DNA of 15,393 nt from an archaeon (GTDB taxonomy: Archaea > Iainarchaeota > Iainarchaeia > Iainarchaeales > 1-14-0-10-31-34). The position numbers were made by a program. Location: assembly GCA_043819075.1 (NCBI GenBank), contig JBDRFE010000030.1, forward strand, positions 1-15,393. Reading direction: 5' to 3'. Positions 1 through 3,000 of this stretch are shown in pieces. Each line of letters opens with the position of its first letter. Position 1 is the stretch's first letter.

Positions 1-3000
1 CTTTTTTCAGAAAAGACTGCAGTTCAACTGAAAGATTAATGAAAGAAGTCCTGACTTTAAGCCCCGGACTGTATTACGCGCAAAACTATATTACTGCCTG
101 CCAGGAAGCCAAAATAAAAGGATTATATTCAGATGACTGGCTAAGCCAGATATGGCTTTTCCTGATAATAGCAGTTTTAGTTGCAGTGGCATACTATTTC
201 ATTAAAGTCAAAAAAATAACTATTACAGCAAAAAAGTAAAATAAAAAAAGAGGGCTTTAAGCCCTCTGCATTTGCTTGTATGCAGCCAAATCCAGCAAAC
301 CATGCCCTGAAAAATTAAAGGCAATAATTTTTTGTTGTTTTTCTTTTTTTGCCTTTAACGCACAGTCAATTGCTGCATTTATTGCATGAGCTGTTTCTGG
401 TGCAGGAATTATTCCTTCACTGTTGGCAAAAAGTCTTGCCGCTTCAAAAGTTTCTTTTTGGTTGTATGCAACTGCTTTCATAAAACCAAGCTTTTTCAGC
501 AGTGAAAGAGAAGGAGAATCCCCGTGATATCTTAGGCCTCCTGCATGAATTGGCTCTGGAATAAAGTCATAGCCCACAGTATACATTTTAATTAATGGAG
601 TCATTTTTCCTGTGTCGCCAAAATCATACCTGTATTCTCCTTTGGTTAGAGTTGGAACTGCTTTTGGTTCAACTGCAATCACTTCAAAGTCTTCTTTTCC
701 TTTTAGTTTGTCTTTCATAAAAGGATAAACCATTCCTGAAAAATTGCTTCCTCCTCCAACACAGCCAATTAATACATCAGGTTTTTTGTCAATTGATTCA
801 AACTGTTTGATTGTTTCCAAACCAATTATTGTCTGATGCATTAAAACATGGTTTAAGACAGAGCCAATAGAATAAAATGTTTTTTCGTTTGTTGCTGCTT
901 TTTCTATTGCCTCGCTTATTGCAATGCCTAAAGAACCATTAAAGTTCTTTTTTTCTTTCAGCAATTGTTTTCCAATATTAGTGTTTTCTGAAGGAGAAGC
1001 AAAAACTTTTGCCCCAAACAAATTCATTAAAATTTCCCTGTAAGGCTTCTGCAAAAAAGAACTTCTCACCATAAAGACTTCTGCTTTTAGTTCATTAAAC
1101 ATTGCTGCCAAAGAAACAGCTGAACCCCATTGCCCTGCACCGGTTTCAGTGGAAACATTTTCAAACCCCTGTTTTTTTCCATAATATGCTTGAGCTAAAG
1201 CAGTGTTTGGTTTATGCGAACCAACAGGGCTTAAGTCTTCTCTTTTATAATAGATTTCTATCCCTTTTGGAAGGGAAAGTTTTTTTTCCAGTCTTAAAGC
1301 CCTGTATAAAGGCCTTGGCCTGCCCAAAAAAATGTATTGCTCTCTTAATTCTTCTGGAATCCTGATAAAAGATTCTGAACTGAATTCCTGTTTAATGCAT
1401 TCTTTTGGAAACAAAACTTCAAAGTCTTGTGGCTTTACAGGCTGCATTGTGCCTGGATTCAAAGGAAAAGGAAGTTCTTCAGGCAAATCCGGAAGAATGT
1501 TGTAGTAATGTTTTGGCAAATCTTCAACAGGCAATTGGATGACGCCAAAGACTCCTCCCTTCCTCAAAGTTTTTTGTTTTAATTTCTTTTATTTTGTTCA
1601 TTGTATTACCTCCTATTTTATAGTTTATCCTGAATAATTCAAGAACATGTTTTGTTGTTTTGCAGGGAAAAAGGTTTTCAATTAAAGCCCTTGAAATCAC
1701 ATCTGATTTTGTTGCACTGAACCCTTTTCTTCTGTTCAATAACTTTATTTCATCAGAAAAATAGTCAACCAAAAAACAGGGAATTTTTTTTATTCCAAGA
1801 AGCCTGAAAGCTTTTACCCTGTGATGGCCGTCAAGGATTGTAAGACTTGTTTTGTCTATTACCACAGGGAAAAAAAGAGTCTTGTTTTTTCTGATTGAAT
1901 TAATGATTTTTAAGAGCCTTGAAGGAATTATTTTTTCATGCGGTTTAAGAAGCGAGATTTCAATTAATTTTATTTTGTTCAAGCCAAAGGCTTTCGCTGT
2001 TCTGGCAGCTCCCTTCAGAAAAAAATTTTTTTGAGCTATAATTAACTAAAACAGAATCAGAATTAATTTTGCCAAAGTCGCTCAACTCTTTGCATAAAAT
2101 AACTGGATAAAAAAAAGTATTTAAAGGCATTGCATGAAACAGCAGTTTTTTTAACAGGAAAAGCCTTTATTTTGAACATGAAAAATAAAAAAGAAAAAGG
2201 ACCGTTAGAAAAGTGGGCTGACTTCTTTTACTCAAACAACAAATTTTCATTCAAAAAACTGGCATTGATTTATTTTTTTCTCGTGATTTTAATTCTTTTA
2301 CAGGGCATAAATGACTGCGAAGAATCAATTAGTTTTTGTTTAACCCAAATAAAATTAACTCCCTTGTTTTTTGCAGTAGTTTTTGGCTTGCCTTTAATTG
2401 CATTGGCTCTCGCTTTCTTTCTGGTTTGGATTGAAAAAAACACTAAAATGAATCCTAAAATTTTTTTGGGAATAATTATTTTTATTCCAATGATAAGTCT
2501 TCTAATAGGCGGAACATTATACAGAATAATAAACAAGCAAGATCTCGCGGGAATTTTATTGTTGTGGGGAATTGTGCTGGTTTCGTTTGTAGCTGCATTT
2601 CTTTACATAAAAGTGCCTGAATTTATAAGAAAAAAATTCGGCAGAAAGCATTAGTTTTTTTAACAACAAAAGCGTTAATATTGTTGATTAAATGATTCCA
2701 GAAGACCAGATTGAAGCTTTAGTTGAAAAATATATTAAGCACGGGCAAACCATTGGAATCGGCTCAAGCGAATTAGGAGTAAAGTTTTTAAAAAAAATGG
2801 CTTTAAAAAAAGAAATTGAAAGCCTTGAATTAAAAATTGTTCCGACTTCAGCTGAAATGACTTTAATTTTAAAACAATTAAACTTGGAAATGGGTTCACT
2901 TGATGAAAAAGAAGTTGATGTAGCAATAGAGTTCGCTGATTTAGTTGACCACAGCTATAATTATGTTAAAAGGCAGTCAAAAAGTTTTGTCAGGGACAAA

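Follow-up and report, generated by a model that had tools for sequence, protein, structure and literature searches.

We propose that the window, the 15,393-nt stretch of archaeal DNA analyzed here (contig JBDRFE010000030.1, from a 1.24-Mb metagenome-assembled genome [MAG] that is 90.6% complete and 2.9% contaminated), carries a two-gene tryptophan-salvage operon whose expression is probably turned on when ribosomes undergo +1 frameshifts that sense tryptophan. Both open reading frames of the serK-trpB2 pair are present on the minus strand. Judging from sequence, neither gene appears to have a convincing start, and both frames appear to be entered via +1 sites. Slippage at these sites very likely takes place, and it is likely to depend on tryptophan. 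With somewhat less assurance, we favor the broader view that several archaeal lineages carry a selected hungry-codon switch, in which cassettes of a Shine-Dalgarno (SD) sequence, a slippery codon, and UGG form a stacked, multiplicative gate into the enzyme frame or into a start-coupled linker. The elements of the operon lie as follows.

2118 to 2125, minus strand: TATA-like box, TTTAAATA, about 30 nt 5' of the uORF1 ATG.
2063 to 2095, minus strand: uORF1 (MQRVERL-W-QN, stop), with its sole Trp codon at position 8.
2071 to 2077, minus strand: candidate shift site 1, CTT TGG C, with weak upstream anti-SD pairing (-5.2 kcal/mol).
1960 to 2073, minus strand: linker frame, +1 of uORF1, 29 codons up to site 2.
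1996 to 2016, minus strand: conserved GAAGGGAG with a weak 4- to 5-bp hairpin, 6 nt 5' of site 2.
1983 to 1989, minus strand: candidate shift site 2, CTT TGG C, with serK in the +1 frame; relatives read TTT TGG.
1614 to 1982, minus strand: mini-SerK core, 123 aa, free of Trp codons; the frame extends through the trpB2 leader to a stop at 1524.
1608 to 1614, minus strand: SD sequence AGGAGGT of the trpB2 leader, complementary to the 16S 3' end of this genome.
1524 to 1601, minus strand: trpB2 leader ORF in the serK frame, with an ATG at 1601, 18 Lys-rich codons, Trp, 6 codons, and a stop.
1544 to 1559, minus strand: candidate shift site 3, GGGAGG, 3 nt (AGT), and CTT TGG C, -10.0 kcal/mol.
257 to 1546, minus strand: TrpB2 body, 429 codons past site 3, with the PLP Lys (SHK), TETGAGQWG, the Arg of GLRY, and one Trp codon.
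249 to 267, minus strand: terminator-like hairpin and T run spanning the trpB2 stop, common to the convergent protease gene (from a consensus scan only).

Three in-phase CUU-UGG-C sites (at 2077, 1989, and 1550) join a putatively leaderless uORF, the linker, serK, and trpB2, each in the +1 frame of its predecessor. When TGGC was taken as one four-base step, the stretch from 2095 to 257 became one continuous frame of 611 residues, in which exactly three of these steps occur. Positions 1300 to 2162 are also covered by a contig obtained in an independent run, with 12 substitutions and no indel. All three sites were conserved in five of five genus-level loci, where indels occurred only in multiples of 3. 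In the same five loci, the uORF1 ATG and its Trp codon were equally placed, and the linker was stop-free at 88 or 91 nt (3n+1), the remaining two frames containing stops. The distance from site 2 to the KPHE motif was 34, 37, or 40 nt. A TATA-like box stood at a similar distance from the uORF1 start in all five, which suggests a leaderless transcript beginning near this ATG. TTG codons at 1982 (serK) and 1534 (trpB2) are potential starts of near-complete proteins.

The 16S 3' end of this genome carries the standard anti-SD. Site 3 ranked top among the 34 candidates of a genome-wide cassette scan. At site 2, a close SD was absent (-0.3 kcal/mol), and only a distant SD and the weak hairpin were present. 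It is possible that GAAGGGAG or this hairpin stimulates site 2, with no covariation seen; in the available part of one study, hairpins upstream of a shift site were able to promote +1 shifting in vitro (PMC6321510). A tRNA-Leu(GAG) was found in this genome, and ARAGORN returned no match to tRNA-Trp, which in an assembly of this completeness is not evidence of absence. We discarded a -1 slip at A-AAA-AAC in the leader of trpB2, as it leads to the wrong frame. His or Cys versions of the cassette were not confirmed: a scan of the window's genome with other codons yielded 34 weak candidates, of which site 3 alone was convincing.

We next consider the spread of the element among archaea. TrpB2 matches were found in 22 of 215 genomes of the phylum, in 38 of 80 and 36 of 80 genomes of other archaea, and in 23 of 201 and 35 of 40 genomes in separate searches. 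The best 30 loci per TrpB2 search were taken, genomes G375 to G400 being left out; five loci had incomplete 5' ends, and 127 distinct trpB2 units had complete ones. Chains of UGG sites were followed until they reached the first gene, whether directly or via a frame ending on its ATG. An in-phase chain was found in 53 of the 127 units (5 of them doubtful) and a chain in the wrong phase in none, compared with a mean of 0.7 and a maximum of 3 in 40 rounds of dinucleotide shuffling; these counts are not independent trials, since the units are kin. On a TrpB2 tree built with FastTree, the site label required only 11 changes, 8 of them forced by strong branches. The doubtful chains (L010, L107, L122, L127, and L137) were excluded from the tree groups and site tables, and three further loci (L068, L135, and L140) fell below the SD filter. 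The other 74 units had no site.

The codon pair at these sites was specific. With an NTT codon in the P site, TGG occupied the A site in 48 units, whereas each of the 15 other TNN codons did so in at most 3. With the P codon unrestricted, the corresponding counts were 56 and 12 units. The P-site codon was then CTT, TTT, GTT, or GCC in 70 of 82 sites, a slippery set that was picked after inspection of the data, and CTC, TTC, or GTC in none; ordinary genes of this genome favor TTC and GTC before TGG. For GUU and GCC, +1 re-pairing would be imperfect. The consensus over the 70 sites was RG[G/T]GAT, 3 nt, the P codon, TGG, and mostly C. The SD-like element, GGKGAT, stands 3 nt 5' of the P codon, with G at -11 in 65 of the 70 sites. 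Internal SD pairing reached -3.5 or lower in 65 of 70; among the sites of the window it is present at site 3, weak at site 1, and absent at site 2. Two broader patterns were set aside. Avoidance of NTT-TGG in ordinary genes proved unspecific genome-wide, as it also occurred before TGC and TGT and with nonslippery codons, and a loose motif searched over 401 genomes was mis-spaced, with matches at background level.

The position of the site followed gene order. A site preceded serK in all 16 complete serK-first loci, counting G368, which was fetched beyond the initial 15 as a test of the gene-order rule. Among the pairs in which trpB2 comes first, five of eight had a site ahead of trpB2 and three had none. 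From these sequences, the predicted shift site is located on whichever gene leads the operon. Two genomes (G331 and G494) carried an extra site at the trpB2 end in phase with serK, and one locus (L114) had a third site out of phase. Of the 35 directly entered genes, 10 had no ATG, GTG, or TTG further than 4 codons upstream of the conserved core and 25 had some earlier start codon; thresholds of 10 and 8 codons left 15 of 35 without an early start, and admitting starts 8 to 9 codons before the trpB2 anchor returned this to 10 of 35. The leader peptide, R-x-[DE]-[CRL]-[LF]-W, was likewise conserved and might play a nascent-peptide role.

The tandem form was regular in one family (f43) that is most likely Thermococcaceae and that encodes full-length SerK. 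All seven f43 loci examined had two or three in-phase sites; the final frame ended on the trpB2 ATG in six and fused to the gene in one. An SD and an ATG belonging to trpB2 itself are present here and also in family f56. When five f43 genomes were searched with a strict motif, all 11 matches fell at trpB2, and the genome without a trpB2 match had none. The same motif occurred in 70 of 97 f43 genomes, with 138 matches compared to 8 for the reversed pattern. The gaps between neighboring tandem sites were 3n+1 in 62 of 63 cases, spread over seven different lengths.

Turning to the encoded proteins, a preliminary description of this locus had assigned the ORF at 1524 to 1982 (minus strand), with its PHE and LDGHHR motifs, to the ParB/Srx fold. 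This assignment held, the nearest match being the free serine kinase SerK (PDB 5X0B, E 1e-12; profile E 4e-29). Its reported length of 152 aa and 11-nt overlap with trpB2 turned out to be gene-calling artefacts. The final 26 codons belong to the trpB2 leader, which has a separate SD and an ATG at 1601, and in a relative (G014) serK ends at the ATG of this leader. The protein had also been described as lacking the C-terminal half of SerK. A 15-sequence profile mapped mini-SerK onto SerK residues 18 to 120 and 202 to 240, and its predicted structure (pLDDT 90) superposed 121 to 123 residues on SerK and SbnI (Z 13 to 19, rmsd 1.3 to 1.8 Å), with sulfiredoxin and ParB below Z 9. Thus, the C-terminal motif (SerK 202 to 240) is retained, and it is the middle domain that is missing. 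The motif given earlier as KTTRH reads KTTKH in the window, and the family, put at 19 clusters, comprises 146 clusters (50% identity) at E ≤ 1e-30, most of them 115 to 170 aa long.

Mini-SerK retains the ParB/Srx core, catalytic Glu30, D69-G-H-H-R73, K221, T223, and H225 (SerK numbering); we presume that the residues from D69 onward have catalytic roles. The position of SerK W102, which we take to be a substrate contact, is Arg in the window protein and in 21 of 25 trpB2-linked kinases. Across these 25, E30, D69-G70-H71, R73, and H225 were conserved without exception. The catalytic role of E30 is taken from the titles of PDB mutant entries. Mini-SerK scored 73 bits against an NCBIfam SerK cut-off of 380 (NF053625) and falls outside a definition of SerK as a two-domain chain of about 242 aa. 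We give it a good chance of being a serine kinase; if active, it is a minimal 123-residue one that feeds TrpB2 without serine biosynthesis. Elsewhere, members of this kinase family adjoin or are fused to domains that include CysK-like enzymes and nucleotidyltransferases, among others. We rejected an obligate SerK-TrpB2 fusion, since serK ends 5' of the leader in G014 and G016 and 105 longer homologues gave no TrpB2 match.

The identification of the gene ending at 257 as TrpB2 was borne out by 646 bits against a cut-off of 519 for TIGR01415; the corresponding values were 656 and 366 for NF009057 and 157 and 392 for trpB (TrpB1). The protein is 91% identical to that of a relative. It carries the PLP Lys, TETGAGQWG, and an Arg (GLRY) replacing the TrpB1 Asp, which we take to be the phosphate-binding Arg of TrpB2. 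From the parts of the literature available, this Arg of TrpB2 binds the phosphate of phosphoserine (bioRxiv 10.64898/2026.03.11.711232), and TrpB2 enzymes use phosphoserine, with phosphoserine and indole giving tryptophan (PMC11917138, citing Busch 2014). TrpB2 also scavenges indole at low Km (PMC11535334, in part), so that a kinase would be needed where SerA is missing. In line with the earlier claim, the TrpA, IGPS, chorismate-binding, and SerA families gave no matches in this genome at its 90.6% completeness. The TrpD-family match is an AMP phosphorylase, and the three SerC-family matches are a NifS-like desulfurase, an aspartate aminotransferase, and a fragment on contig C65. No TrpA match was found in this genome or in four members of the family (81 to 96% complete). 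SHMT is present. A third PALP enzyme, threonine-synthase-like and below cut-off, lies in a different operon.

Adjacency of kinase and trpB2 in the organism's own family was confirmed, in both gene orders. The pairing had been thought confined to that family. We found the pair in three further archaeal groups, with the kinase touching trpB2 beyond the phylum (the class of G358, the phylum of G331, and G368). In the available part of PMC1854888, a second conserved neighborhood for trpB2 was not found. A tRNA-Trp(CCA) lay immediately 5' of trpB2 in 6 of 26 loci scanned. Of the kinases beside trpB2, 22 of 25 contained no Trp, against 64 of 128 whose context is unknown, and TrpB2 proteins with a shift site had a mean Trp count of 1.7, versus 3.1 for those without. 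These Trp-free linked kinases, Trp-poor TrpB2s, and tRNA-Trp genes fit tryptophan as the input, and with the tryptophan-codon control elements they argue against the alternative, raised earlier, that the PLP enzyme combines phosphoserine with sulfide to make cysteine. The salvage reading itself stood on fold, catalytic residues, the TrpB2 Arg, wider co-occurrence, and these signs of tryptophan, and was weakened by the Arg at W102. By sequence, the kinase probably makes O-phosphoserine, which TrpB2 would join to indole.

The second copy of the pair reported on contig C21 exists, but it is truncated at the contig end and lacks the N-terminal 79 residues of the kinase, including DGHHR. The neighboring protease gene is repeated there as well (82% DNA identity), and many further contig pairs in the bin are 78 to 90% identical. 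Given the contig-end cut, the repeated protease gene, and these similar contig pairs, a simpler reading is that the C21 copy may be an orthologue from a co-binned relative.

We weighed our frameshift model against other accounts of the same features. The leaders could stall on tryptophan and exert attenuation or polarity at the level of RNA folding or transcription termination, the genes starting at nearby TTG, GTG, or ATG codons without any frameshift. A single Trp codon in each short leader, a U-run in the linker, the conserved leader peptide, the TTG at 1534 that overlaps the leader stop, and the SD and ATG that f43 and f56 trpB2 possess all suit such attenuation. Still, it leaves unexplained the 3n+1 phasing of the gaps, the restriction of P codons to NTT, the stop-free linkers that terminate exactly at the trpB2 ATG in f43, and the genes without a usable start. 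No terminator-like site was found in the leader by a bacterial-type scan, which may miss archaeal terminators, and four loci gave no Rfam match. We consider attenuation unlikely. We hold it just as improbable that the frameshifts are programmed at a fixed ratio, with UGG serving as a rare, slow codon that lowers output constitutively without responding to tryptophan. UGG does make up only 0.85% of codons in this genome, and at Ty1-type sites, rare codons are associated with a shift of fixed frequency (PMC5009743, in part). A fixed ratio does not account for an A-site codon that is always that of the end product, for the confinement of all 11 strict-motif matches in the five f43 genomes to trpB2, or for encoded proteins that avoid Trp.

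Tryptophan-responsive control as we propose it could also operate with a ParB/Srx protein that is not a serine kinase but acts on another substrate or serves as a nucleotide-binding helper, in which case TrpB2 would use free serine or imported phosphoserine. This is doubtful but deserves more weight than the two accounts above. It would fit the low NCBIfam score, the missing middle domain, and the change of W102 to Arg, as well as the binding of CTP by a SerK-like protein (PMC12704722, in part); moreover, most trpB2 loci have no such neighbor (25 distinct linked kinases in about 130 loci). Against it stand the superposition of all 123 residues on SerK and SbnI, with the next family below Z 9, the invariant catalytic positions, the absence of a SerA match in the genome, and the partners of the kinase family, which are phosphoserine-type PLP enzymes. 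Finally, assembly errors or decaying pseudogenes might mimic the pattern in a contaminated MAG with duplicated contig ends. This is hardly credible, as the layout is identical in independent assemblies and single-contig genomes, the frames are intact, and the phase survives indels.

In our model, the ribosome would initiate on the leaderless uORF. With ample charged tRNA-Trp, UGG would be read and translation would terminate after three more codons. A shortage of tRNA-Trp would leave the A site empty; with the help of an SD contact 3 nt upstream, the P-site tRNA would then slip from CUU to UUU, the same pair as in prfB, and the ribosome would continue in the next (+1) frame. Two serial slips would yield the kinase with a 36-residue tail, and one slip from the internal SD-led leader would yield TrpB2. 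The kinase would then phosphorylate serine, and TrpB2 would condense the phosphoserine with indole. Stacking would multiply small probabilities and may thereby give a steeper, sharper response. More speculatively, early termination might exert polarity on the operon.

The bacterial trpL attenuator is a short leader ORF whose Trp codons report charged tRNA-Trp and which controls trp genes. It differs from the present element, which has one Trp codon per leader frame rather than tandem codons and places the downstream gene in the +1 frame. For the alternative terminator and antiterminator of trpL-type control, no counterpart was seen in the leader and Rfam searches given above, which may have missed an archaeal one.

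The closest known system is prfB (release factor 2), which, according to the available part of PMC5009743, combines a short zero frame, a CUU-U site, an SD 3 nt upstream, a slow A-site sensor codon, and a +1 product. Site 3 fits this description, and the 3-nt SD spacing given there for +1 shifts matches our 70-site consensus. In prfB, the A site holds a UGA stop and the product is a release factor that autoregulates; here the codon is the sense codon UGG, the genes are serK and trpB2, and the predicted input is tRNA-Trp charging. The sites here are also stacked two or three deep, occur in Archaea, and control a metabolic operon, and some lineages couple to the ATG of the gene instead of fusing to it. 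Hungry-codon shifting as described by Gallant, Ty1 (CUU_AGG_C), and antizyme share the +1 slip at a slow sense codon, and antizyme responds to a metabolite. In contrast to the hungry-codon cases, the sites here are natural, conserved, and matched to the end product of the pathway. In vitro, a shift occurred on a CUU-UGU reporter when Cys was limiting (PMC6321510, in part). For natural trans-frame products specific to starvation, the accessible text of a 2016 review states, "no examples are known" (PMC5009743).

The fold of the 123-aa core, the catalytic Glu, DGHHR, and K-T-T-x-H are shared with SerK (T. kodakarensis TK0378, PDB 5X0B to 5X0K) and SbnI (PDB 5UJD, 5UJE, and 6NR6). Mini-SerK differs from them in lacking the middle domain of about 100 residues, in W102 being Arg, in its half length, and in its TrpB2 partner; its activity is a prediction. 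With stand-alone TrpB2 (TIGR01415; PDB 4QYS, 6HTE, and 6HUL), the window protein shares scores above both NCBIfam cut-offs, the PLP Lys, the indole-site Glu motif, and the phosphate Arg, but its N terminus is predicted to come from a leader in another frame. The available sections of PMC5120207, PMC12704722, and PMC13759103 describe SerK, SbnI, and SerBK and not a kinase-TrpB2 unit. In those of a 2021 review (PMC8211752), the single archaeal frameshift listed as demonstrated is of the -1 type; neither these sections nor the accessible main text of PMC3711429 mentions tryptophan or trpB. We found no published report of the element; subscription papers and supplements (e.g., the GeneTack clusters of PMC3711429) may bear on its novelty.

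Taken together, the mechanism class is known; for a sense codon as the input, for the serial arrangement, and for the occurrence in this domain of life, we found nothing in print. The pair represents SerK/TrpB2 chemistry in a variant form, probably performing salvage as first proposed, and its control region forms a conserved device of several sites, tied to the tryptophan codon, for predicted +1 frameshifting. If this is true, it would be an undescribed way of sensing amino acid shortage, a third route of ribosome-based amino acid sensing beside attenuation and T-boxes, and a case of regulatory +1 frameshifting in archaeal chromosomal genes. It would also mean that elongating archaeal ribosomes scan with their anti-SD, and it would explain mis-called trpB2 and serK starts. 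The sites provide precisely defined candidates for testing, and tandem arrangements are common in f43, most likely the culturable Thermococcaceae, for which genetics are available.

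The leader that precedes trpB2, the gene for the stand-alone tryptophan synthase beta chain, takes different forms in different archaeal families. In family f56 (loci L096, L145, L149, L151-L158, and L160), it comprises six codons, MGDLV-W, and reaches the trpB2 ATG via a +1 linker, the frame that would be entered after the proposed Trp-responsive frameshift. There is no adjacent serK at these loci, and the MGDLV-W leader was absent from seven sister genomes. In family f14 (L012, L016, L017, and L018), the proposed site, a slippery P-site codon followed by TGG in the A site, has GCC instead of NTT. 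Re-pairing at this P-site GCC would give a first-position mismatch, as it does at the UCC of antizyme. Three close relatives carry a fused in-frame start in place of the site. At L015 (genome G156), we found a short ORF ~100 nt 5' of trpB2 with a single Trp codon (TTC TGG), which is out of phase with trpB2; the latter has its own SD and ATG.

A pyrimidine-rich stretch, TTATTCCCTC...GGGAC, is conserved directly 5' of the trpB2 SD at L079, L081, L103, L109, and L114. This stretch could be a pairing partner for the SD, and such pairing would be opened by a ribosome translating the last linker frame. The immediate 5' neighbor of trpB2 is tRNA-Trp(CCA) at L006-L008, L014, L017, and L020. At the locus that is probably L022 (G133), two further frames lie 3' of trpB2, which from their motifs are probably TrpB1-like and TrpA-like.

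In coding regions of G000, the genome that contains the window, T-ending codons are rarer before all TGN codons, and this scarcity extends to both slippery and nonslippery codons. Several of its contig groups (C11/C43, C41/C70, C16/C29/C10, C18/C3, C3/C75, and others) share colinear stretches at 78-90% identity, which suggests that the bin includes a second, related population. Other genes in the window are as follows.

3425-3499: tRNA-Met
3664-4620, plus strand: LAGLIDADG-like protein, 318 aa, flanked by tRNA-Met and tRNA-Glu
4606-4680: tRNA-Glu, its start overlapped by the LAGLIDADG-like gene
4798-5835, minus strand: protein of 345 aa that carries a class III signal peptide and whose C-terminal half is repetitive and Cys-rich
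7605-8970, minus strand: consecutively, a CxxCxxCC protein, DUF5320, and DUF134
6405-7595, following the preceding entry: membrane protein with a CPHC motif, presumably thioredoxin-like
14684-15391, plus strand: integrase N-terminal SAM-like domain, continuing past the contig end

The mini-SerK domain, a small putative serine kinase, shares a single protein with a CysK-like domain (P0075, P0076, P0125, and P0219), a nucleotidyltransferase domain (P0080-83 and P0257), a SufS-like domain (P0086), or a gamma-carbonic-anhydrase-like domain (P0226), and it occurs in tandem in the oomycete proteins P0020-P0074. At L047 (G331) and L124 (G494), an additional CTT TGG C lies four codons 5' of the trpB2 stop, in phase with the downstream serK. 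A slip at this second site could yield a TrpB2-kinase fusion.
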